The position numbers were made by a program, and so were the translations under genes. Below are positions 1-30,440 of a stretch of DNA of 32,000 bases, piece after piece. The DNA is from Moraxella nasicaprae. GTDB taxonomy: Bacteria; Pseudomonadota; Gammaproteobacteria; Pseudomonadales; Moraxellaceae. The stretch covers positions 690,001 through 722,000 of the forward strand of contig NZ_CP089977.1 in NCBI RefSeq assembly GCF_025643275.1, in the 5' to 3' direction. Below the pieces are notes generated by a model. It searched no databases and had not been told where the DNA came from. It saw nothing but the letters and a program-made list of their open reading frames with translations. Position 1 is the first letter of the stretch. Every line of letters begins with the position of its first letter.

Positions 1-150
1 CGTGATTCTGCCATTGTCGCTACGGCTTGAAAAGCCCACAGCAACCGCAGCTTGGTCTCGATAAGAACCTAAGCCAAATGCCAGCATTGATTTGCCAACC
101 GTGCTTACCTGTGGCAAGGCGGCAGTAGCACGAGAACCTGCCAAACCTGC
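1..150 (-). other. YadA-type C-terminal membrane anchor (partial)
   Basis: AGLAGSRATAALPQVSTVGKSMLAFGLGSYRDQAAVAVGFSSRSDNGRIT matches the ALPQ...GKSM..G.G.Y.GQ.A.A.G.S..SDNG anchor consensus. It is preceded by a neck (APGVISANSTDAVNGSQLF, nt 190-270) and a short coiled coil. Confidence 0.8.
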
Positions 151-3100
151 TTCTAGGTTTTGCTCCACACCATCAATGTGCTGACGCAAATTGTTGATGT
201 ATTGGTTGGTTGCAAATAACTGCGACCCATTGACAGCATCGGTTGAATTGGCAGAAATCACACCTGGTGCAACATTGCTCACCACATTATGACCCATATT
301 GACCGTACCTTGTGCATTGACCGTTAGGCTATTTGTCGTGATTGCATTGGCTGTTACCGTGTCGGCTGTCAGCGTGTCTGCAACTTTAACATTGTTAAAC
401 GATACATCATCGGTCGTGGTGATGCTTAATTTACCAGCATTTTGGGTGATGGCGATGTTATCACCTGCATTGATGGTAACCGTATTACCTGGATTAACCA
501 GCTCTTTGCTTGAACCTGATACCTTGCCTGTGCCAGATGCACTGGTGGTTAGGGTAAATCCTGAGTTGTTAATCGCTTTGGCAACATCATCAGCAGTCAC
601 CAATGCAGCAGTCGCCACCGCCAAGTCTTGTTGGGCGTTAGTCACAGCGGTTTGGGCTGCTTGACGCTCCGCTGGTGTGGCGGTTGTTGGCAATTTCGCC
701 AATGCAGTTTGGGCATTGGTTAATGCAGTTTGGGCATTAGTCACAGGACTGATGGCAGAACCTGCTTTTTCTTGACCTGCTGGAACACCCTCAATGCTGG
801 CTGTATGTGCGTCAATCTTGACGGTGCTATTTTTACCATCGCCATTTGTAACGGTAGCGATTGTGCCTTTGCCATCAATAAAGTTGATGTTGTCGCCAGC
901 TTGTACCACATCTTTGGTTTCGCCATTGTTTTGCAGATTCCAATCGCCAGCTGCTTGACCTACCTCGCCATCTTTACCATCTCTACCATCTTTGACTACG
1001 GTAGTGGTGGTGCCATTGACATCGGTAACGGTGATGGTATGGGTGCCATCTTGATTGTTGGTTACTGTGGCGATGGCATTTTGACCGTCTTTACCGTCTT
1101 TACCATCAGCACCTTTTTCACCTTGGTCACCTTTGTCACCTTTTAGGCCTTGGATACCTTGTTCGCCTTGGTCACCTTTGTCACCTTTAGCACCGTCTTT
1201 ACCGTTCTTGATGTCAAAGGTTTTTTCGCCAGTAGCATCAGTGATGGTGACGGTTGAGCCTGTGTCGTTGGTGTCAACGGTTACAGTTGGGCTAAAGCCG
1301 TCAGCACCTTTTTCACCTTGGATACCTTGTTCGCCTTGGATACCTTGTTCACCTTTTAGGCCTTGGATACCTTGTTCACCTTGGTCACCTTTGTCACCTT
1401 TTAGGCCTTGGATACCTTGTTCGCCTTGGTCACCTTTGTCACCTTTAGCACCGTCTTTACCGTTCTTGATGTCAAAGGTTTTTTCGCCAGTAGCATCAGT
1501 GATGGTGACGGTTGAGCCTGTGTCGTTGGTGTCAACGGTTACAGTTGGGCTAAAGCCGTCAGCACCTTTTTCACCTTGGATACCTTGTTCGCCTTGGTCA
1601 CCTTTGTCACCTTTTAGGCCTTGGATACCTTGTTCACCTTGGTCACCTTTGTCACCTTTTAGGCCTTGGATACCTTGTTCGCCTTGGTCACCTTTGTCAC
1701 CTTTAGCACCGTCTTTACCGTTCTTGATGTCAAAGGTTTTTTCGCCAGTAGCATCAGTGATGGTGACGGTTGAGCCTGTGTCGTTGGTGTCAACGGTTAC
1801 AGTTGGGCTAAAGCCGTCAGCACCTTTTTCACCTTGGATACCTTGTTCGCCTTGGTCACCTTTGTCACCTTTTAGGCCTTGGATACCTTGTTCGCCTTGG
1901 TCACCTTTGTCACCTTTAGCACCGTCTTTACCGTTCTTGATGTCAAAGGTTTTTTCGCCAGTAGCATCAGTGATGGTGACGGTTGAGCCTGTGTCGTTGG
2001 TGTCAACGGTTACAGTTGGGCTAAAGCCGTCAGCACCTTTTTCACCTTGGTCACCTTTGTCACCTTTTAGGCCTTGGATACCTTGTTCACCTTGGTCACC
2101 TTTGTCACCTTTTAGGCCTTGGATACCTTGTTCGCCTTGGTCACCTTTGTCACCTTTAGCACCGTCTTTACCGTTCTTGATGTCAAAGGTTTTTTCGCCA
2201 GTAGCATCAGTGATGGTGACGGTTGAGCCTGTGTCGTTGGTGTCAACGGTTACAGTTGGGCTAAAGCCGTCAGCACCTTTTTCACCTTGGATACCTTGTT
2301 CGCCTTGGTCACCTTTGTCACCTTTTAGGCCTTGGATACCTTGTTCGCCTTGGTCACCTTTGTCACCTTTAGCACCGTCTTTACCGTTCTTGATGTCAAA
2401 GGTTTTTTCGCCAGTAGCATCAGTGATGGTGACGGTTGAGCCTGTGTCGTTGGTGTCAACGGTTACAGTTGGGCTAAAGCCGTCAGCACCTTTTTCACCT
2501 TGGTCACCTTTGTCACCTTTTAGGCCTTGGATACCTTTTTCACCTTGGTCACCTTTGTCACCTTTTAGGCCTTGGATACCTTGTTCACCTTTGTCACCTT
2601 TTAGGCCTTGGATACCTTGTTCGCCTTGGTCACCTTTGTCACCTTTAGCACCGTCTTTACCGTTCTTGATGTCAAAGGTTTTTTCGCCAGTAGCATCAGT
2701 GATGGTGACGGTTGAGCCTGTGTCGTTGGTGTCAACGGTTACAGTTGGGCTAAAGCCGTCAGCACCTTTTTCACCTTGGATACCTTGTTCGCCTTGGTCA
2801 CCTTTGTCACCTTTTAGGCCTTGGATACCTTGTTCACCTTGGTCACCTTTGTCACCTTTTAGGCCTTGGATACCTTGTTCGCCTTGGTCACCTTTGTCAC
2901 CTTTAGCACCGTCTTTACCGTTCTTGATGTCAAAGGTTTTTTCGCCAGTAGCATCAGTGATGGTGACGGTTGAGCCTGTGTCGTTGGTGTCAACGGTTAC
3001 AGTTGGGCTAAAGCCGTCAGCACCTTTTTCACCTTGGTCACCTTTGTCACCTTTTAGGCCTTGGATACCTTGTTCGCCTTGGTCACCTTTGTCACCTTTA

Positions 3101-6100
3101 GCACCGTCTTTACCGTTCTTGATGTCAAAGGTTTTTTCGCCAGTAGCATCAGTGATGGTGACGGTTGAGCCTGTGTCGTTGGTGTCAACGGTTACAGTTG
3201 GGCTAAAGCCGTCAGCACCTTTTTCACCTTGGATACCTTGTTCACCTTTTAGGCCTTGGATACCTTGTTCGCCTTGGTCACCTTTGTCACCTTTTAGGCC
3301 TTGGATACCTTGTTCGCCTTGGTCACCTTTGTCACCTTTAGCACCGTCTTTACCGTTCTTGATGTCAAAGGTTTTTTCGCCAGTAGCATCAGTGATGGTG
3401 ACGGTTGAGCCTGTGTCGTTGGTGTCAACGGTTACAGTTGGGCTAAAGCCGTCAGCACCTTTTTCACCTTGGATACCTTGTTCGCCTTGGTCACCTTTGT
3501 CACCTTTTAGGCCTTGGATACCTTGTTCGCCTTGGTCACCTTTGTCACCTTTAGCACCGTCTTTACCGTTCTTGATGTCAAAGGTTTTTTCGCCAGTAGC
3601 ATCAGTGATGGTGACGGTTGAGCCTGTGTCGTTGGTGTCAACGGTTACAGTTGGGCTAAAGCCGTCAGCACCTTTTTCACCTTGGATACCTTGTTCACCT
3701 TTTAGGCCTTGGATACCTTGTTCACCTTGGTCACCTTTGTCACCTTTTAGGCCTTGGATACCTTGTTCGCCTTGGTCACCTTTGTCACCTTTAGCACCGT
3801 CTTTACCGTTCTTGATGTCAAAGGTTTTTTCGCCAGTAGCATCAGTGATGGTGACGGTTGAGCCTGTGTCGTTGGTGTCAACGGTTACAGTTGGGCTAAA
3901 GCCGTCAGCACCTTTTTCACCTTGGATACCTTGTTCGCCTTGGTCACCTTTGTCACCTTTTAGGCCTTGGATACCTTGTTCGCCTTGGTCACCTTTGTCA
4001 CCTTTAGCACCGTCTTTACCGTTCTTGATGTCAAAGGTTTTTTCGCCAGTAGCATCAGTGATGGTGACGGTTGAGCCTGTGTCGTTGGTGTCAACGGTTA
4101 CAGTTGGGCTAAAGCCGTCAGCACCTTTTTCACCTTGGTCACCTTTGTCACCTTTTAGGCCTTGGATACCTTGTTCACCTTGGTCACCTTTGTCACCTTT
4201 TAGGCCTTGGATACCTTGTTCGCCTTGGTCACCTTTGTCACCTTTAGCACCGTCTTTACCGTTCTTGATGTCAAAGGTTTTTTCGCCAGTAGCATCAGTG
4301 ATGGTGACGGTTGAGCCTGTGTCGTTGGTGTCAACGGTTACAGTTGGGCTAAAGCCGTCAGCACCTTTTTCACCTTGGATACCTTGTTCGCCTTGGTCAC
4401 CTTTGTCACCTTTTAGGCCTTGGATACCTTGTTCGCCTTGGTCACCTTTGTCACCTTTAGCACCGTCTTTACCGTTCTTGATGTCAAAGGTTTTTTCGCC
4501 AGTAGCATCAGTGATGGTGACGGTTGAGCCTGTGTCGTTGGTGTCAACGGTTACAGTTGGGCTAAAGCCGTCAGCACCTTTTTCACCTTGGTCACCTTTG
4601 TCACCTTTTAGGCCTTGGATACCTTTTTCACCTTGGTCACCTTTGTCACCTTTTAGGCCTTGGATACCTTGTTCACCTTTGTCACCTTTTAGGCCTTGGA
4701 TACCTTGTTCGCCTTGGTCACCTTTGTCACCTTTAGCACCGTCTTTACCGTTCTTGATGTCAAAGGTTTTTTCGCCAGTAGCATCAGTGATGGTGACGGT
4801 TGAGCCTGTGTCGTTGGTGTCAACGGTTACAGTTGGGCTAAAGCCGTCAGCACCTTTTTCACCTTGGATACCTTGTTCACCTTTTAGGCCTTGGATACCT
4901 TGTTCGCCTTGGTCACCTTTGTCACCTTTTAGGCCTTGGATACCTTGTTCGCCTTGGTCACCTTTGTCACCTTTAGCACCGTCTTTACCGTTCTTGATGT
5001 CAAAGGTTTTTTCGCCAGTAGCATCAGTGATGGTGACGGTTGAGCCTGTGTCGTTGGTGTCAACGGTTACAGTTGGGCTAAAGCCGTCTTTACCATTTTT
5101 GATGTTTAGTTCCTTTTGACTACCATCTGGCTGAGTGATAGTAATAATGTACCCATCATCAGTTTCTTTGGTTTCAAACAATGTACCTTTGATGGTAATT
5201 TCACGCACATTATCTTTGGTTTCGCCATTTACAATGATGCCTTGCTCACCGATGAATTTGACTTCATTGGCATTTTTGACCACATCGTTGTAACGGTTAC
5301 CAGAAGCAGAAACAACCCAACCCATATTACGCAAGTCACCCACAGTGGCAACAGTACTGTCCACAACACTAGTGTTAGCTAAGTTAAGTAGTGGTGCAGT
5401 GCCTCCTGTTATACTGATTGGATTGATTGATACATGATTGATGCCAAGTCCGCTTTGTACATTACTAATACTAATCGGATTGCCGATGGTATTTGGTTTG
5501 GCATTTGGATTGATAGCATTGACAACAATGTTGTCTTTTTCAATTTTCTGATCGGTTGGGTTGCCATTTTCGTCTAACACATAGTATTCATCACCCACTT
5601 TGGCAACTGGCTTACCATCTTTGGTGGTGTAAGAGACTGGCAGACCAATCACATTGACCTTGATATCACTTGAATTTTTGTCAGAATTAGTGGCGATGGT
5701 AACTTTGGTATTAGCACCATCAACAAAATTAACTTTATCACCAAACTTCACATCATCTTTATCAGTGGCATTTTCTTGTAGTTTCCAGCTGCCATTTTGA
5801 AGCACAGAATAAATCTGCGAGCCATTGATGGCGTCAGTAGAGCGAGCAGAAATCTCACCTGCGGCCACATTAATCAGGCGGCGTTCGCCATCTAAGCCAT
5901 CACCATAGACATGGTCGGCTTTATCACGACCGATTGATACCACGCCCGCTGCCCTTTCGCCAGCAAATCCGCCATAGGTAATATCACCAATCGTTGCTTG
6001 GTTAATCTTGTCTTTGATTTGACCATCAGCATCATAACTGTCATTGTTGATGGTTGCCGAGTATTCAGACGCACGAGAACCCAAAATCACATTGTCCGAC

Positions 6101-7704
6101 TTAGTCAGCGTATCAATTTCACGACCCAATACCACTGTACGGTCAGCCGTGTTACTGATTTGAACTGCATCGCCAATTGCCACTGAGCCACTACCTGCGT
6201 TGATGGTATTACGACCAATAGAGATTGCGGTAACATCGGTCGCCTGTGAATTTGTACCAATAGCAATGGCGTCATTCGCCAACGCTTTGGCAGTATGACC
6301 GATGGCGGTTGAGCGGTAGCCTGCATTTGCCAAATCGCCTGCTTGGGCTTGATAGCCCATTGCTACGCCAAACTGGGTATTTGCTTTACTTTCTGTACCG
6401 ATGGCAACTGTATTGGCAGCGTTAGTGGTCGCACCTGTACCTACCGCAAAGCTGTTTGTGCCTGTTGAATTGGCTCTTGTACCAATGGCATAACCGCTTG
6501 TACCATTTGCGATTGCAGTCGTACCGATGGCAGTGCTGTCCACGCCTTTGGCATTGGCTTTATTGCCCAATGCCAATGAGCGGGCAAGCTCGGTACTTGC
6601 ATTATGACCAATGGCGATTGCACTAGCACCCTGTGAGTTTGCATCAAGACCCACCGCCAAAGAACGGTTGCCAATTGCATTAGCACGATTACCGATGGCA
6701 ATTTCAGCATATCCGCCCTGTTTGCCTGCGGTTGCAGATTCGCCCAATGCCACTGCATTTTGACTCAAAGCTTTGGCTTTATAAGCAATGGCAGTACTGC
6801 CATAGCCTTGGGCTTTGGCAGTAGTACCGATGGCAGCGGCATACTGGTTGGTGGTCTCAGCTTGGTCGCCAATCGCCATTGCTGAACCTTGACCTGCCAC
6901 TTTGGTTTTTGCTCTATGACCCAAAGCAATGGAGTTTTTACCCCTGACGGTTGCTTCATCGCCTAATGCAATTCCTGATGCTGCATTGTAATTATCGGCT
7001 GACACATCCGCCTTAAAACCAATAGCAACTGATTTTTGACCATTTACAATAGCATTTGTACCCATTGCAATACTGTTAGAAGACTGCTGTGCATTGGCGA
7101 CACCTGTTTTGGTGACAGCATTATAACCCACTGCAATGGCATTCTCGCCCAATGCTCGGGCATGGACGCCCGCCGCCAAAGCTTTTGCACCTGATGCACC
7201 ACCTGTGCTATCAACAGTATCTTTGTTGGTTGCGATAGGTGTTGCTGTTTTGTTTGTATCATTAACGTGGAAGTAGTTTCGTTTTGCTGTTGTTGCATCT
7301 ATCGTGGGAAGATGAGCATTTACAACCGGCAAGCCGGTATTCACATCAACAAGCTGCTTTGCATCCAGATTATAGGCATAGCGATCGTCATTTATAGTTC
7401 TAAGGGCATTTAGGTACAGGTCCCCAAAATTTCTAGGATCTGAAGGAATGTATTGAAGATTATTTGTAATCCAGTTATGCGCCACTTCAATTCTCTGTGT
7501 CGTCGATAGCGAAGAGATAGGAACTAAATTTGGTTGTGCACCAGGAAAGAACTGAGCCTGTGCCACAGAGGCAGTTAATACCACTGCGGTGGCAATGGTG
7601 GCTACCTTGATGGATTTGGTCTTGCCTTTGGCTTTGGCGTACTCGGCAACTGCTGTCCATGTTTGTGTAGCATGATTAAATACAACACGATAAAACTTGT
7701 TCAT
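1..7704 (-). CDS. Giant trimeric autotransporter adhesin (type Vc, YadA/Hia/Hag-like). The C-terminal end of the beta-barrel anchor runs off the left window edge; 2568 codons are open in the window.
   Basis: The minus-strand frame (codons on 3k+1..3k+3) starts at ATG 7702-7704, with AAGGTAGGA 5 nt upstream. Hand translation of 5041-7704 and 1-1140 found no stop, and all repeat units are in frame. The ORF track omits it because it has no in-window stop. N-terminus MNKFYRVVFNHATQTWTAVAEYAKAKGKTKSIKVATIATAVVLTASVAQA is an ESPR-type signal. Other motifs: many xSIAIG/xAIAIGxxAxA head repeats; neck RLINVAAGEISARSTDAINGSQIY; TVGDLRNMGWVVSA Trp-ring; C-terminal ALPQVSTVGKSMLAFGLGSYRDQAAVAVGFSSRSDNGRIT anchor motif. 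Confidence 0.9.
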   Translation of the reverse strand, partial: MNKFYRVVFNHATQTWTAVAEYAKAKGKTKSIKVATIATAVVLTASVAQAQFFPGAQPNLVPISSLSTTQRIEVAHNWITNNLQYIPSDPRNFGDLYLNALRTINDDRYAYNLDAKQLVDVNTGLPVVNAHLPTIDATTAKRNYFHVNDTNKTATPIATNKDTVDSTGGASGAKALAAGVHARALGENAIAVGYNAVTKTGVANAQQSSNSIAMGTNAIVNGQKSVAIGFKADVSADNYNAASGIALGDEATVRGKNSIALGHRAKTKVAGQGSAMAIGDQAETTNQYAAAIGTTAKAQGYGSTAIAYKAKALSQNAVALGESATAGKQGGYAEIAIGNRANAIGNRSLAVGLDANSQGASAIAIGHNASTELARSLALGNKANAKGVDSTAIGTTAIANGTSGYAIGTRANSTGTNSFAVGTGATTNAANTVAIGTESKANTQFGVAMGYQAQAGDLANAGYRSTAIGHTAKALANDAIAIGTNSQATDVTAISIGRNTINAGSGSVAIGDAVQISNTADRTVVLGREIDTLTKSDNVILGSRASEYSATINNDSYDADGQIKDKINQATIGDITYGGFAGERAAGVVSIGRDKADHVYGDGLDGERRLINVAAGEISARSTDAINGSQIYSVLQNGSWKLQENATDKDDVKFGDKVNFVDGANTKVTIATNSDKNSSDIKVNVIGLPVSYTTKDGKPVAKVGDEYYVLDENGNPTDQKIEKDNIVVNAINPNAKPNTIGNPISISNVQSGLGINHVSINPISITGGTAPLLNLANTSVVDSTVATVGDLRNMGWVVSASGNRYNDVVKNANEVKFIGEQGIIVNGETKDNVREITIKGTLFETKETDDGYIITITQPDGSQKELNIKNGKDGFSPTVTVDTNDTGSTVTITDATGEKTFDIKNGKDGAKGDKGDQGEQGIQGLKGDKGDQGEQGIQGLKGEQGIQGEKGADGFSPTVTVDTNDTGSTVTITDATGEKTFDIKNGKDGAKGDKGDQGEQGIQGLKGDKGEQGIQGLKGDKGDQGEKGIQGLKGDKGDQGEKGADGFSPTVTVDTNDTGSTVTITDATGEKTFDIKNGKDGAKGDKGDQGEQGIQGLKGDKGDQGEQGIQGEKGADGFSPTVTVDTNDTGSTVTITDATGEKTFDIKNGKDGAKGDKGDQGEQGIQGLKGDKGDQGEQGIQGLKGDKGDQGEKGADGFSPTVTVDTNDTGSTVTITDATGEKTFDIKNGKDGAKGDKGDQGEQGIQGLKGDKGDQGEQGIQGEKGADGFSPTVTVDTNDTGSTVTITDATGEKTFDIKNGKDGAKGDKGDQGEQGIQGLKGDKGDQGEQGIQGLKGEQGIQGEKGADGFSPTVTVDTNDTGSTVTITDATGEKTFDIKNGKDGAKGDKGDQGEQGIQGLKGDKGDQGEQGIQGEKGADGFSPTVTVDTNDTGSTVTITDATGEKTFDIKNGKDGAKGDKGDQGEQGIQGLKGDKGDQGEQGIQGLKGEQGIQGEKGADGFSPTVTVDTNDTGSTVTITDATGEKTFDIKNGKDGAKGDKGDQGEQGIQGLKGDKGDQGEKGADGFSPTVTVDTNDTGSTVTITDATGEKTFDIKNGKDGAKGDKGDQGEQGIQGLKGDKGDQGEQGIQGLKGDKGDQGEQGIQGEKGADGFSPTVTVDTNDTGSTVTITDATGEKTFDIKNGKDGAKGDKGDQGEQGIQGLKGDKGEQGIQGLKGDKGDQGEKGIQGLKGDKGDQGEKGADGFSPTVTVDTNDTGSTVTITDATGEKTFDIKNGKDGAKGDKGDQGEQGIQGLKGDKGDQGEQGIQGEKGADGFSPTVTVDTNDTGSTVTITDATGEKTFDIKNGKDGAKGDKGDQGEQGIQGLKGDKGDQGEQGIQGLKGDKGDQGEKGADGFSPTVTVDTNDTGSTVTITDATGEKTFDIKNGKDGAKGDKGDQGEQGIQGLKGDKGDQGEQGIQGEKGADGFSPTVTVDTNDTGSTVTITDATGEKTFDIKNGKDGAKGDKGDQGEQGIQGLKGDKGDQGEQGIQGLKGDKGDQGEQGIQGEKGADGFSPTVTVDTNDTGSTVTITDATGEKTFDIKNGKDGAKGDKGDQGEQGIQGLKGDKGDQGEQGIQGLKGEQGIQGEQGIQGEKGADGFSPTVTVDTNDTGSTVTITDATGEKTFDIKNGKDGAKGDKGDQGEQGIQGLKGDKGDQGEKGADGKDGKDGQNAIATVTNNQDGTHTITVTDVNGTTTTVVKDGRDGKDGEVGQAAGDWNLQNNGETKDVVQAGDNINFIDGKGTIATVTNGDGKNSTVKIDAHTASIEGVPAGQEKAGSAISPVTNAQTALTNAQTALAKLPTTATPAERQAAQTAVTNAQQDLAVATAALVTADDVAKAINNSGFTLTTSASGTGKVSGSSKELVNPGNTVTINAGDNIAITQNAGKLSITTTDDVSFNNVKVADTLTADTVTANAITTNSLTVNAQGTVNMGHNVVSNVAPGVISANSTDAVNGSQLFATNQYINNLRQHIDGVEQNLEAGLAGSRATAALPQVSTVGKSMLAFGLGSYRDQAAVAVGFSSRSDNGRIT
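1084..5094 (-). repeat. In-frame tandem array: 17 copies of a 96-bp beta-module alternating with collagen-like (Gly-X-Y)n runs. Unit lengths are 195-276 bp.
   Basis: The marker agcaccgtcttt recurs at 1189, 1447, 1705, 1918, 2158, 2371, 2647, 2905, 3100, 3340, 3553, 3793, 4006, 4246, 4459, 4735 and 4975. Spacings are 258, 258, 213, 240, 213, 276, 258, 195, 240, 213, 240, 213, 240, 213, 276 and 240, all divisible by 3 and differing by multiples of 9. Minus-strand translation: ...DIKN GKD GAK GDK GDQ GEQ GIQ GLK ... GEK GAD G-FSPTVTVDTNDTGSTVTITDATGEKTFDIKN... Confidence 0.95.
5185..5890 (-). other. Neck plus GWxL-type beta domain plus Trp-ring/GIN connector domains
   Basis: GERRLINVAAGEISARSTDAINGSQIYSV (neck); NGSWKLQENATDKDDVKFGDKVNFVDGANTKVTI; ATVGDLRNMGWVVSASGNRYNDVVKNANEVKFIGEQGIIVNGETKDNVREITIKG, which closely resembles the Hia Trp-ring/GIN motif as I recall it. 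Confidence 0.65.
6121..7200 (-). other. YadA-like head (left-handed beta-roll) repeats of the adhesin
   Basis: The translation shows about 20 degenerate 14-15-aa repeats, e.g. NAIAVGYNAV, NSIAMGTNAI, KSVAIGFKA, NSIALGHRA, SAMAIGDQA, STAIAYKA, NAVALGESA, AEIAIGNRA, RSLAVGLDA, SAIAIGHNA, NSFAVGTGA, NTVAIGTES, DAIAIGTNS, GSVAIGDAV. Confidence 0.75.
7555..7704 (-). other. Extended signal peptide region (ESPR) of the autotransporter, with predicted cleavage after AQA (about residue 50)
   Basis: MNKFYRVVFNHATQTWTAVAEYAKAKGKTKSIKVATIATAVVLTASVAQA|QFF. The MNKxYRxxxNxxxxxWxAVxExAK pattern is typical of type V extended signal peptides. Confidence 0.8.
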
Positions 7705-7801
7705 AAATTCCTACCTTGGTTAATGAAACAATCAATCAAAAAGTGCACATAAATAATACAAATATACTATGTGATGTCATAAATATGACCCATATTTCCC
7801 C

Positions 7802-7836
7802 ATTATAACTATCTTTTGCTAAAAAATAAATAAACT
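7802..7836 (-). promoter_or_regulatory. Putative sigma70 promoter of the adhesin gene: -10 TATAAT (7802-7807) and a weak -35 TTTATT 17 nt upstream
   Basis: The reverse complement reads TTTATT-17nt-TATAAT, embedded in extremely AT-rich DNA about 95 nt upstream of the ATG. Many alternative AT-rich hexamers exist nearby. Confidence 0.25.
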
Positions 7837-8228
7837 AACAGGCATTTTTTTATATTTTATTTTTACATCAAATAATTTATATAAGTATTGAAATTACTTA
7901 TTTTAATTAAGAATATATATAATGATTGTTTTTATTTATCGATATAACCATTAGTTTTATTAAATTGTATATAATTTACCCATCAAATATATAAGAAAAT
8001 CACCTAGAAAAATTAGATAATCCAATGATTGTCATCAAAAATAAATATTATAAATATTTTCTTAATTATAAAAAAATAATAAAATTTTGATAATATCATG
8101 ATAATTGTATATATATTAAGCACTTAGCTCAAAATTTGACCATAGGGGGGTAGAAAGGACTTTTATTTTTGGATAAAAAATTGATGAATGATTTTTAATG
8201 ATTGTGATATAAAATGTATAAAATTTAT

Positions 8229-8255
8229 ACAAAAAAATGGCGAAATTATCGCCAT
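8229..8255 (-). terminator. Rho-independent terminator of truC; the hairpin overlaps the stop codon
   Basis: On the minus strand the stem is ATGGCGA-taatt-TCGCCAT, followed by TTTTTTT. Confidence 0.6.
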
Positions 8256-14168: not shown

Positions 14169-15290
14169 ATGACAACAACCATCAACACCATTGGCATCTT
14201 AGGCGGTGGGCAACTGGGCATGATGCTGGCACAATCCGCCTTAAATTTGGGTCTGCAATGCGTATTTTTGGAAGATGCTGACAATCCGCCAGCGTCTTTT
14301 TATGGCAAAGTATTCAAAAGCAGTCAGCTTGATGAATTCATCAACGCTGCCGATGTATTTACCCTAGAATTTGAAAACACACCTGTCGATACCGCTCAAT
14401 CTTTGGGCGAGATTACCAATAAAGCAGGCATTTATCCACCTGCCATCGCTCTACGCACCACCCAAGACCGCCTACACGAAAAGGCACTATTTAACCAACT
14501 TGACATCGATACCGTGCCTTTTTTGGCGGTCAATGACTTTGATGAATTGCAACACGCCTGTCAGCATCTAGGCTTGCCTTTGGTGCTTAAAACCAGCCGT
14601 GGTGGTTATGACGGTAAAGGTCAGTTTGTCATCAAAAATCAAGCCGACATCCATACCGCTTGGGACGAGCTGGGTCAAGCGTGCCAAACTGCACCGCTGA
14701 TTGCCGAAGGTTTTATCCAGTTTAGCCGTGAAGTCTCCATCATTGCCGTGCGTGGCAAAGATGGACAAATTGGCTACTATCCTTTGGTAGAAAACACCCA
14801 TCATCATGGCATTCTTGCCAAGACCGTTGCTCCTGCACCTGATGCCAACCATCTGACCGAGCAAGCCCAAAACAACATCAAAAAACTCTTGGAGCATTTT
14901 GATTATGTGGGCGTGATGGCACTAGAATTATTCGTCACCGAAACAGGGGTGCTTGCCAACGAAATCGCCCCACGAGTGCATAATTCTGGGCATTGGACGA
15001 TTGAAGGGGCGGTGTGTAGCCAATTTGAAAACCACATCAGGGCGGTGGCAGGTTTACCGCTTGGCGACACCCGTATCGTCAAGCCGTCAGTGATGCTCAA
15101 TGTCATTGGTACCTATCCAGTCATCAAAGACATTTTGGCGGTCGATGGTGTGCATTATCACAGCTATCATAAAGAGGAGCGAGACGGTCGCAAAATCGCT
15201 CACATCACCGTGATGCCAGCAGACAGCAACACATTGGACGAGACGGTCGAAAAAGTGGTGAAACTACTGCCCAATAAACTTGGCATGTAG
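14169..15290 (+). CDS. purK: N5-carboxyaminoimidazole ribonucleotide synthase (ATP-grasp)
   Basis: ATG at 14169 preceded by AAGGGA; the track start at 14151 is a TTG. IGILGGGQLGMML, ATP-grasp body, NEIAPRVHNSGHWT. It follows purE. Confidence 0.88.
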   Translation: MTTTINTIGILGGGQLGMMLAQSALNLGLQCVFLEDADNPPASFYGKVFKSSQLDEFINAADVFTLEFENTPVDTAQSLGEITNKAGIYPPAIALRTTQDRLHEKALFNQLDIDTVPFLAVNDFDELQHACQHLGLPLVLKTSRGGYDGKGQFVIKNQADIHTAWDELGQACQTAPLIAEGFIQFSREVSIIAVRGKDGQIGYYPLVENTHHHGILAKTVAPAPDANHLTEQAQNNIKKLLEHFDYVGVMALELFVTETGVLANEIAPRVHNSGHWTIEGAVCSQFENHIRAVAGLPLGDTRIVKPSVMLNVIGTYPVIKDILAVDGVHYHSYHKEERDGRKIAHITVMPADSNTLDETVEKVVKLLPNKLGM

Positions 15291-15354
15291 GCTGCCGACC
15301 ACAAGGGTTTGTCAAAATGCGTTTTCTTTTAATAATGGGATTTTAATAAGTGGT

Positions 15355-16233
15355 ATGGTGTTTTCTACCACTTGGGCAAATGAAGTTAATCGGCTTGATT
15401 TTATTTATTTTAAGCCAATTAACCAAGCCCAAAGAACCGATTTTGACAATCCTGTCAATATCATCAAATATCACGGCATTTATGACACGACTTATACGCC
15501 AACTTATACAGGATTATTTAAGCCGTATGAGCCATCTGATGAATGGGTGCTGACTTTGGCGGACAATCACGAAAGTCTAAAAATCAGATATGGCAACAAT
15601 ACGGCAGGTAAATTCGCCAATGCCAACATTACGCCCTTAGACAATGGCGACTATATTGTCAGTTATGAAAAAGTGCCTTTAAAGTCCAATCAAAGTCCAT
15701 TAATTATGAAGCATTACATTCAGACATTTGATATTGCGGGAGAATTTTTACGGACAGAAGCTGATGGCAAGCCCAAAACCTTGTTTACCTCCTTTACCAA
15801 TTATCATGCTTTGCCAAAAATATTAAATTTCCCCAAAGGCTCAAAATGCTATCAATGGCAATTACACGAAAGTACGCCAGAGTTTTATGAATTTTCTCGC
15901 AGGGCATCATTTGAGTTATTTAATTTAGACAATAATATGCCAGAATATTGGAGTGATAGAACTCCAAGCGAATATTTGGGCGAAAATAATCAGGTAGCAA
16001 TTTATCCATTGGAAAATGAAGCAGAAATGCTTACTGATTATGAATTGACTTTTTATTTTGACACCATTTATCAAAACAAATACTATTCTGATGGCATTAA
16101 GTTCACTCCCAAAAATGCAATGAAAATTGATGGGCAATCTTGCACCTATTTAAATCCCATTGCGTCTGATTATATTGAAAGCTTATTAAAAACTCATCAA
16201 GATAAGATTATTAAAAAAGACACCACCCAATGA
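15355..16233 (+). CDS. Hypothetical protein, AT-rich orphan. The likely original start is ATG 15317, encoding a signal peptide now out of frame.
   Basis: The frame is open from 15280 (TTG), and the first in-frame ATG is at 15355. An out-of-frame ATG at 15317 encodes MRFLLIMGF*, which joins LISGMVFSTTWA|NE after a -1 shift at TTTT 15341-15344. No family motif recognised. The Tyr/Asn/Phe-rich sequence is visibly lower in G+C than its neighbours. Confidence 0.55.
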   Translation: MVFSTTWANEVNRLDFIYFKPINQAQRTDFDNPVNIIKYHGIYDTTYTPTYTGLFKPYEPSDEWVLTLADNHESLKIRYGNNTAGKFANANITPLDNGDYIVSYEKVPLKSNQSPLIMKHYIQTFDIAGEFLRTEADGKPKTLFTSFTNYHALPKILNFPKGSKCYQWQLHESTPEFYEFSRRASFELFNLDNNMPEYWSDRTPSEYLGENNQVAIYPLENEAEMLTDYELTFYFDTIYQNKYYSDGIKFTPKNAMKIDGQSCTYLNPIASDYIESLLKTHQDKIIKKDTTQ

Positions 16234-24734: not shown

Positions 24735-25145
24735 TTACCAAAAATTAATCAATCCAAGCACCTGTGCCAACGCAAGTACGCTTGCCAAGCCATACACTTG
24801 GGCAAAAGACTGACAAAACGATAAATATTTGGCAGGCACAACCATATCCATTGGGTCATCTGGCAAGTCTTCGCTTTTAATCAAACTGCCACTATAAAAA
24901 AAGCCAATCAACGCATATAAAGGATATGCCACCGCCACCGCACTGCCAAACTGAGCGAAGTCCAAAAAATACCACGCCACCGCCGACACCAGCACCCAAA
25001 CGCTGGTCATCAAGCTGATGATGGCAAAAAAGTTACTTTGGGGCATTTTGCCTTGATTTTTGAGCAGTAGTGCTGCCTCAACATAAACCAAGCACGCCAT
25101 CAGCAGGCTAAGCACCAAAAAACAAGTTACTAAGTCAAATTTCAT
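24735..25145 (-). CDS. Hypothetical small integral membrane protein (about 4 TM segments)
   Basis: ATG at 25145; the track start at 25148 is a GTG. Four hydrophobic stretches and no recognised motif. Confidence 0.5.
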   Translation of the reverse strand: MKFDLVTCFLVLSLLMACLVYVEAALLLKNQGKMPQSNFFAIISLMTSVWVLVSAVAWYFLDFAQFGSAVAVAYPLYALIGFFYSGSLIKSEDLPDDPMDMVVPAKYLSFCQSFAQVYGLASVLALAQVLGLINFW

Positions 25146-25232
25146 CACGATTTATCAAGCATATCTTATTGGTTTTGGCATTATACACCATTTGAGCGGT
25201 TTGCCAAAATTGCTTTTATACAAAAAAATTGA

Positions 25233-30071: not shown

Positions 30072-30440
30072 ATGCACACGCCATTATCCAAATTTTTAAT
30101 CACGCTTTTGCCTGCCATGCTATTTTGTCACGCTGGCAATACCGACAATCTGACCATCTACCAAAGCCTTGGAAAGTTTGGCGAGGCTCGCTATACGCAG
30201 ACACCGCCCATTGGCACAGCTTTTGAACCGATGACGATTTTTTTACCCAAGCAGGCAAATCAACACGCCAATCAAGCGTTTTGTCAAAATTTAAACAAAC
30301 AGCTTGCCACTCTCTCATCGGGCGGGCAAATCCATGAGATTGACGCACAAGGCAATCAAAAACTGCTCAATGCTGCCCAAATCGAACAAGCCAAACATCA
30401 AATCCGCCAAACTCTATCCGCTCAGTGCCAATCCCAATGA
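30072..30440 (+). CDS. DUF4124-like secreted protein
   Basis: Signal-peptide-like MHTPLSKFLITLLPAMLFCHA. IYQSLGKFGEARYTQTPP resembles the DUF4124 (I/V)Y+W.D..G..hYSD.PP motif. The stop overlaps the queG start (ATGA). There is no clear SD at 30072. Confidence 0.55.
   Translation: MHTPLSKFLITLLPAMLFCHAGNTDNLTIYQSLGKFGEARYTQTPPIGTAFEPMTIFLPKQANQHANQAFCQNLNKQLATLSSGGQIHEIDAQGNQKLLNAAQIEQAKHQIRQTLSAQCQSQ

Follow-up and report, generated by a model that had tools for sequence, protein, structure and literature searches.

A very large trimeric autotransporter of Moraxella nasicaprae with a proline-free collagen-like array and a catalogued collagen-flanked surface repeat

Introduction

Collagen-like repeats within trimeric autotransporters have been described in the VtaA proteins of Glaesserella (Haemophilus) parasuis. 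In strain Nagasaki, all 13 VtaA proteins carry two to eight Pfam PF01391 (Collagen) domains between passenger and anchor (PMC6211672), and a passage of PMC6755704 that cites Pina 2009 dates the description of their "triple helix collagen-like repeats" to 2009 and after. A collagen fragment of VtaA10 migrates as a multimer resistant to sodium dodecyl sulfate (PMC2820231), removal of the collagen domains of VtaA2 lowers its binding to collagen (PMC6755704), and mimicry of human type II collagen has already been proposed for VtaA10 (PMC8415917). The gene considered here lies at the left edge of a window of 32,000 nucleotides (contig NZ_CP089977.1 of assembly GCF_025643275.1, positions 690,001 to 722,000 of the forward strand) and encodes a trimeric autotransporter adhesin, in which long Gly-X-Y runs alternate with a 31-residue module, called the bead in what follows. 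The source organism, Moraxella nasicaprae, is a bacterium of the goat nose.

Like the VtaA proteins, the window protein combines an ESPR, a YadA head and stalk, central PF01391 domains and a YadA anchor (PMC6211672). It differs from them in composition, the VtaA collagen being proline-rich, as in AGPTGPQGPAGPTG (PMC6211672), whereas that of the window protein is proline-free, and also in size, VtaA proteins having about 1,000-1,200 amino acids (1,225 in VtaA2) and far fewer triplets. No Glaesserella locus turned up in the genome scan for related loci. Scl1 and Scl2 of Streptococcus pyogenes and Lcl of Legionella resemble the window protein as hydroxyproline-free, charge-stabilized Gly-X-Y surface fibers, but in each of them the collagen is a single uninterrupted domain that has its nucleus in a globular domain at the terminus, with LPXTG or other anchoring, and they lack both the autotransporter anchor and the interspersed beads. 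The proteins of the PF19079/TIGR04203 family share with it a unit of about 40 residues (DG-F/I-SPT-x-x-V ... ITITD-x-x-G-T ... NGKDG), flanked on both sides by Gly-X-Y and arranged in long tandem arrays; their top members are mostly proteins resembling Gram-positive adhesins or phage tail fibers, whereas the array of the window is inside a Gram-negative trimeric autotransporter. The "collagen-like adhesin" of Burkholderia was considered as a further precedent and rejected, being represented by lipoproteins with a different domain and not by trimeric autotransporters.

Read against these systems, the window protein is, on its sequence, an exceptionally large and proline-free trimeric autotransporter that joins collagen repeats with a catalogued collagen-flanked repeat, and it belongs to a kind already known.

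Results and Discussion

Domain layout and coding strand

The adhesin is encoded by a single open minus-strand frame that begins with the ATG at 7704, reaches base 1 and crosses the left edge of the window, leaving 2,568 amino acids visible, and a ribosome-binding site, AAGGTAGG, is present 5 bases 5' of the start codon. A Pfam search of the translated frame gave ESPR, YadA_head, Trp_ring, YadA_stalk and YadA_anchor, all above their cut-offs (Table 1), which bears out the preliminary description of the protein as a trimeric autotransporter. The best of the YadA_head stretches covers amino acids 462-486, and the match to the anchor spans positions 1-36 of the 60 positions of the profile, the remainder falling off the window edge. 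Anchors of the YadA type contribute four strands per chain to a 12-stranded barrel.

Table 1. Coordinates of the adhesin gene, its domains and the overlapping frame within the window
Feature	Positions	Strand	Basis
Trimeric autotransporter adhesin gene	1..7704	-	ATG 7704-7702; C-terminus beyond left edge; open frame and Pfam domain set
ESPR extended signal peptide, amino acids 1-48	7561..7704	-	PF13018, 48.6 bits, cut-off 25
Head region, YadA_head (Hep_Hag-type) repeats, amino acids 49-793	5326..7560	-	PF05658, 114.6 bits, 5 stretches
Trp-ring domain leading into the array, amino acids 794-839	5188..5325	-	PF18669, 59.5 bits
Short entry bead LFETKETDDGYIITITQPDGSQKELNIKN, amino acids 842-870	5095..5181	-	Directly C-terminal of the Trp ring; PF19079 match; predicted beta strands
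Array of 17 identical 31-residue beads alternating with 17 Gly-X-Y runs (11-20 triplets), amino acids 871-2209	1078..5094	-	Exact-string search, PF01391, TIGR04203, Tandem Repeats Finder
Divergent exit bead GQNAIATVTNNQDGTHTITVTDVNGTTTTVVKDG with short Gly-X-Y flanks, amino acids 2204-2250	955..1095	-	PF19079 (CFSR), 37.6 bits in whole protein, 43.1 bits alone, cut-off 27
Conventional C-terminal stalk, amino acids 2252-2530	115..951	-	YadA_stalk PF05662, 68.6 bits, 2 stretches, best at amino acids 2475-2516
Start of YadA-like membrane anchor, amino acids 2531-2567	4..114	-	PF03895, 34 bits, cut-off 22.7
Shadow open reading frame, not a gene	1133..5119	+	TTG start; confined to array; PWIPCSPWSPLSP-type translation; no Pfam match

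The opposite strand of the array is also open, over 1,328 codons, and its length is the one feature in favor of taking the plus-strand open reading frame (ORF) as the true gene and the frame on the minus strand as incidental. The repeat unit, however, lacks stop codons in this plus-strand frame, and that alone keeps it open; the frame does not leave the repeats, begins with TTG, matches no family and would yield a Pro/Ser/Trp/Cys repeat of the PWIPCSPWSPLSP type, whereas the minus frame extends 2.6 kb and 1.1 kb to either side of the array, into strongly scoring trimeric autotransporter domains. Plus-strand coding was for these reasons rejected as extremely improbable, and the assignment of the adhesin to the minus strand, made in the preliminary description, holds, the plus-strand ORF being only a shadow frame. 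Gene callers that rely on ORF length could mis-call it as a gene.

The repeat array

An exact-string search for the 31-residue bead, FSPTVTVDTNDTGSTVTITDATGEKTFDIKN, returned 17 copies, the first at 4990-5082 and the last at 1204-1296, and the 93-bp DNA of the bead is 100% identical in 17 of 17, so that the 17 copies reported earlier are exact down to the nucleotide. The Gly-X-Y runs between them had been given as 11, 13, 16, 18 or 20 triplets, and the same values are obtained when counting stops at GAD; a regular-expression count that includes the GFS triplet gives 12, 14, 17, 19 and 21. Without GFS the total is 268 triplets, or 804 residues, close to the hand count of about 260 triplets and 790 residues. 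The further claim that this sequence makes up more than half of the visible protein fails for Gly-X-Y alone (31%) and stands only for Gly-X-Y together with the modules (amino acids 875-2260, 54%). Pfam Collagen (PF01391) matches in 17 stretches with an E-value of 4e-136, far beyond chance. Glycine occupies each third position without a lapse in all 17 runs, whose lengths are always whole triplets.

Two variants of the bead, the entry and exit beads of Table 1, bring the total to 19. Gly-X-Y sequence is found on both sides of 17 of the 19 beads; the entry bead is flanked C-terminally only, and the C-terminal flank of the exit bead consists of just four triplets. At the DNA level the array resolves into eight unit variants, in the order ABCDCECAFGBCDCGH, which differ only by 45-bp blocks; insertions and deletions between units always comprise whole triplets or blocks of five triplets, and Tandem Repeats Finder reports periods of 45, 213, 240, 258, 276 and 453 bp. 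Repeats identical at the DNA level point to recent expansion or gene conversion and allow easy length variation; therefore, the length of the array can change by recombination among its 100%-identical repeats.

The same identity raises the question of whether assembly has given the array a false size or order, in which case the architecture would be real and the number of 17 copies would not. Besides the identical 93-bp modules and the units that differ just by 45-bp blocks, this is favored by what is seen in related genomes: the assembly of a related Moraxella sp. breaks within the array (its protein, P0001, ends in ...GIQGLKGDK), and the loci of Mannheimia and of Moraxella sp. Pampa reach contig ends in the same region. 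The M. nasicaprae source, on the other hand, is apparently one contig of 2,106,666 bp, which suggests long reads; the minus frame is open throughout 7.7 kb; and eight unit variants in a non-trivial order are unlike a collapsed or uniformly inflated repeat. Since collagen combined with beads is itself present in several independent assemblies, any error would concern the copy number, and we consider such an error quite unlikely.

The bead, its family and its predicted fold

The NCBIfam model TIGR04203, a curated surface-protein repeat, matches the protein in 19 stretches (281.7 bits; cut-off 60). In the corresponding Pfam family, PF19079 ("Collagen-flanked surface repeat", CFSR), a single main bead scores 22.9 bits (E-value 9.8e-5), just below the cut-off of 27, and the main bead of the window is in this respect a divergent variant of the family. 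A fragment that holds the entry bead and bead 1 reaches 29.1 bits for PF19079, with the entry bead as its best stretch; going by count only, the entry bead probably accounts for one of the 19 stretches of TIGR04203. Judged by these profile matches, the bead is a member of the curated TIGR04203/PF19079 family.

The extent of the family was explored with a profile (A2) built from the beads of the window and the fragments retrieved with them. Among 1.84 billion proteins, A2 matched 9,229 representatives at an E-value of 1e-3 or below, 3,891 at 1e-10 or below and 474 at 1e-30 or below, and a PF19079 match was found in eight of the nine top matches that were checked, seven of them above the cut-off. 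The top matches are of two main kinds. The first comprises proteins resembling Gram-positive wall-anchored adhesins, with YSIRK-type N-termini and LPXTG-like tails, such as one (P0144) in which 18 CFSR copies are combined with Collagen and an SdrG-like domain. The second comprises phage-tail-fiber-like proteins, a link based only on matches to PHROG tail-fiber families and on one weak Phage_tail_C match (in P0172). A tblastn search of the phage collection with the unit and with a bead fragment returned nothing, for which the low-complexity filter is the likely cause. One trimeric autotransporter among the top A2 matches (P0236) has ESPR, YadA_stalk, five CFSR copies and YadA_anchor. When the bead profile was used in a word-indexed protein search, just 23 fragments, all short, were retrieved, and among the returns of a like search with the Trp-ring/bead/collagen junction short collagen-like proteins dominated and no trimeric autotransporters were found; neither result amounts to a census of collagen-bearing trimeric autotransporters.

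In the AlphaFold2 model, the bead is a meander of three antiparallel strands, with a mean predicted local distance difference test score (pLDDT) of 82 from an alignment of 18 sequences and of 60-81 without an alignment, in agreement with the earlier suggestion of a small beta-module alternating with Gly-X-Y. When the sequence is read at the modeled strand positions, hydrophobic residues (V-V, V-I and F-I) alternate with threonine or charged residues along each strand.

Composition of the Gly-X-Y runs

None of the 536 X and Y positions of the 268 triplets is proline, and the runs hold 82 KGD and 6 KGE motifs, 88 in total, or about a third of the triplets. Interchain salt bridges of KGD/KGE have been reported to stabilize triple helices kinetically, and no other triplet type is reported to be enriched in the collagen-like proteins of every domain of life and of viruses; the same paper gives the direction of collagen folding as C- to N-terminal (PMC11923368). 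Proline-free Gly-X-Y is, in the sequences retrieved, uncommon and not unique: it was seen in 16 of 165 relatives with at least 30 triplets, a set biased towards the query. By far the highest triplet number in the set is that of the window protein, which has 280 when counted in this way, whereas none of the others exceeds 128.

Three NCBIfam models also exceed their cut-offs on the Gly-X-Y part, namely Lcl with 555 bits (cut-off 500), Scl1/SclA with 404 (400) and Scl2/SclB with 401 (325). Full-length membership in Scl or Lcl was not found, since profile coverage is confined to collagen (positions 67-271 of 431 for Lcl and 116-249 of 405 for SclA) and the protein ends in a YadA anchor. Equivalog or exception models that pass their cut-offs on Gly-X-Y alone therefore carry a risk of automatic mis-naming.

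Proposed architecture of the fiber

These observations lead us to propose, as a probable model, a type Vc adhesin with a spacer of homotrimeric, salt-bridged collagen runs and trimeric beta beads. Three identical chains would be anchored at the C-terminus by a shared barrel of the YadA type, with a YadA-like head at the N-terminus, and the spacer, made of the 19 beads and 17 Gly-X-Y runs, would sit between the Trp ring and the conventional C-terminal stalk. Judging from their phase and composition, the runs are most likely collagen triple helices built as homotrimers; free of proline, these helices would be stabilized by interchain Lys-Asp/Glu salt bridges. The bead is envisaged as a three-stranded amphipathic beta meander with a hydrophobic face of V/V, V/I and F/I residues. 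Because its number of strands is odd, the chain would enter and leave at opposite ends and continue along the fiber axis, and because a lone three-stranded sheet would expose its hydrophobic face, the packing of three sheets round that axis is the natural solution. Three faces packed in this way may form a small trimeric prism that keeps the chains in register and re-nucleates the next helix. As the anchor and each of the beads would tie the chains together, every run would be kept in register, and its local concentration would be very high.

In type V secretion, the C-terminus of an autotransporter passenger is exported before the rest. Together with the C-to-N zipping of collagen, this means that a folded bead could seed the helix emerging after it. 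Taking 0.286 nm for each of the 804 residues (about 230 nm) and about 2.3 nm for each of the 19 beads (about 44 nm), the spacer is estimated at roughly 270 nm, which would be exceptionally long for the fiber of a trimeric autotransporter and would push the head far from the cell surface.

Several points weigh against this model. The copy number, and with it the length, depends on one assembly of 100%-identical repeats, and the anchor is cut by the window edge. The likeness to VtaA is a match to a published description of architecture and not a comparison of sequences. No solved bead structure is available to confirm trimerization, as a PDB sequence search matched the collagen part only and left the bead without a match, and a Foldseek search of the PDB with the bead model returned only generic beta meanders, none of them with an E-value below 0.5. 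The Gly-X-Y runs, finally, have pLDDT values below 50 in the AlphaFold2 models, which are of monomers only, and fully proline-free runs of just 11-20 triplets may have low thermal stability alone.

The low pLDDT, the shortness of the individual runs and the lack of proline across all 268 triplets speak for the alternative that the runs are flexible, highly charged disordered linkers between independently folded beads, the array then being an entropic tether and not a stiff rod. A disordered linker, however, has no need of the triplet phase, for which the unlapsed glycine at every third position and the insertions and deletions of whole triplets or five-triplet blocks indicate selection. Moreover, the third of triplets in KGD/KGE motifs is the type reported to stabilize helices (PMC11923368), classical proline-rich collagen occupies the same site in homologous trimeric autotransporters, and the joining of the chains at both ends removes the concentration barrier to helix formation. 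We therefore regard disordered linkers as unlikely and prefer the triple-helical spacer.

A more specific version of the triple-helical model, which we put forward only tentatively and with more doubt than confidence, is that the TIGR04203 beads serve one after another as clamps that hold the trimer in register, each nucleating the next proline-free, KGD-zipped segment while the passenger leaves the type Vc barrel with its C-terminus leading, so that the array would be a self-chaperoning, vectorially folding ratchet that yields a spacer of about 270 nm with recombination-tuned length. If this ratchet were real, it would represent a structurally unsolved class of stalk, absent from the domain dictionary of trimeric autotransporters, and one of their longest fibers, as well as a natural template for proline-free designer collagens.

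Related trimeric autotransporters and novelty

The order Trp ring, entry bead and Gly-X-Y is also found in several other genomes, and the junction of Trp ring and array is conserved in Mannheimia haemolytica (P0023) and in Moraxella sp. (P0001). The Mannheimia protein has the same layout with GPQ-rich collagen (GPQGPQ runs), and the layout is present in Mesocricetibacter as well. Six beads alternate with runs of up to 17 triplets in Mannheimia indoligenes (L003), whose sequence ends at a contig end, and a locus of Neisseriaceae bacterium B1 (L001) has four beads and the anchor. In Moraxella sp. Pampa (L022, 8600-14449) the Trp ring and entry bead are followed by at least 83 uninterrupted proline-rich triplets up to the contig end; its collagen stalk is continuous, without internal beads. 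Gly-X-Y runs are also part of anchored trimeric autotransporters in Spirabiliibacterium and in one more genome of the Pasteurellaceae, but the bead was not detected in these. The relatives from Mannheimia, Neisseriaceae and Moraxella are thus like the window protein in having a Trp ring, a short entry bead and Gly-X-Y with or without CFSR beads, but in the available sequence, cut by contig ends in several cases, they have far fewer beads and triplets, and their collagen often contains proline.

The closest relative is the partial protein P0001, from a metagenome-assembled genome of Moraxella sp. (contig of 273,232 bp), which is 89% identical over the head and ends within the array at a contig break. 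It has about 1,000 additional N-terminal residues that form a second head region ahead of the shared part, and its first bead differs (INGKNGTSVVATVNDDGTITVSNIDADGIKTDVGKLTNGKDG). Comparison of P0001 with the window protein therefore indicates that head and array both vary between close strains.

In view of these relatives, the idea that the stalk was of an uncatalogued type has to be given up: the collagen domains of VtaA are published, the bead is curated as TIGR04203/PF19079, and the same layout recurs in other trimeric autotransporters. The narrower statement that collagen lies outside the structural domain set of trimeric autotransporters appears right, as the daTAA paper has collagen only in its reference list. 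What the locus adds is a very large-scale use, within a Gram-negative trimeric autotransporter, of the set of collagen plus bead that is otherwise known from proteins resembling Gram-positive wall-anchored adhesins and phage fibers. To our knowledge, no structure has been solved for a collagen segment from any trimeric autotransporter. A collagen entirely free of proline and rich in KGD, its chains kept in register at either end, would offer a clean natural test case for the folding and stability of bacterial triple helices. Because assemblies from short reads are interrupted within arrays of this kind, the arrays are probably commoner and longer among trimeric autotransporters than counts suggest.

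In Veillonella spp., three large surface ORFs (L035, 12635-16723; L055, 13732-17763; L032, 11939-15247) have Gly-X-Y runs of 6-17 triplets, separated by a different 24-residue module, KSAYEVWKEIPGNGEKTKEEYLASLKGERG, in place of the beta bead. They were not flagged by the search for YadA-type anchors. These ORFs are a second "collagen plus bead" design, located near trimeric autotransporter genes.

Surroundings of the gene

No Rfam or tRNA features were found in the window. The genes around the adhesin are ordinary chromosomal ones, namely truC, phhA, a Trp/Tyr permease gene, purE, purK, ilvIHC and queG, and seven of the proteins encoded nearby are identical to M. nasicaprae entries in the range UXZ05472-UXZ05490. 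An ORF of 317 amino acids at 15280-16233 (plus strand), flanked by purK and a gene of the YaiI/YqxD family, has no Pfam or NCBIfam match, and two short ORFs without a Pfam match, at 24735-25148 (minus strand, 137 amino acids) and 30072-30440 (plus strand, 122 amino acids), may not be genes. Between truC and the start of the adhesin lies an intergenic stretch of 540 bp (7705-8245), which is very AT-rich and contains numerous A/T runs.

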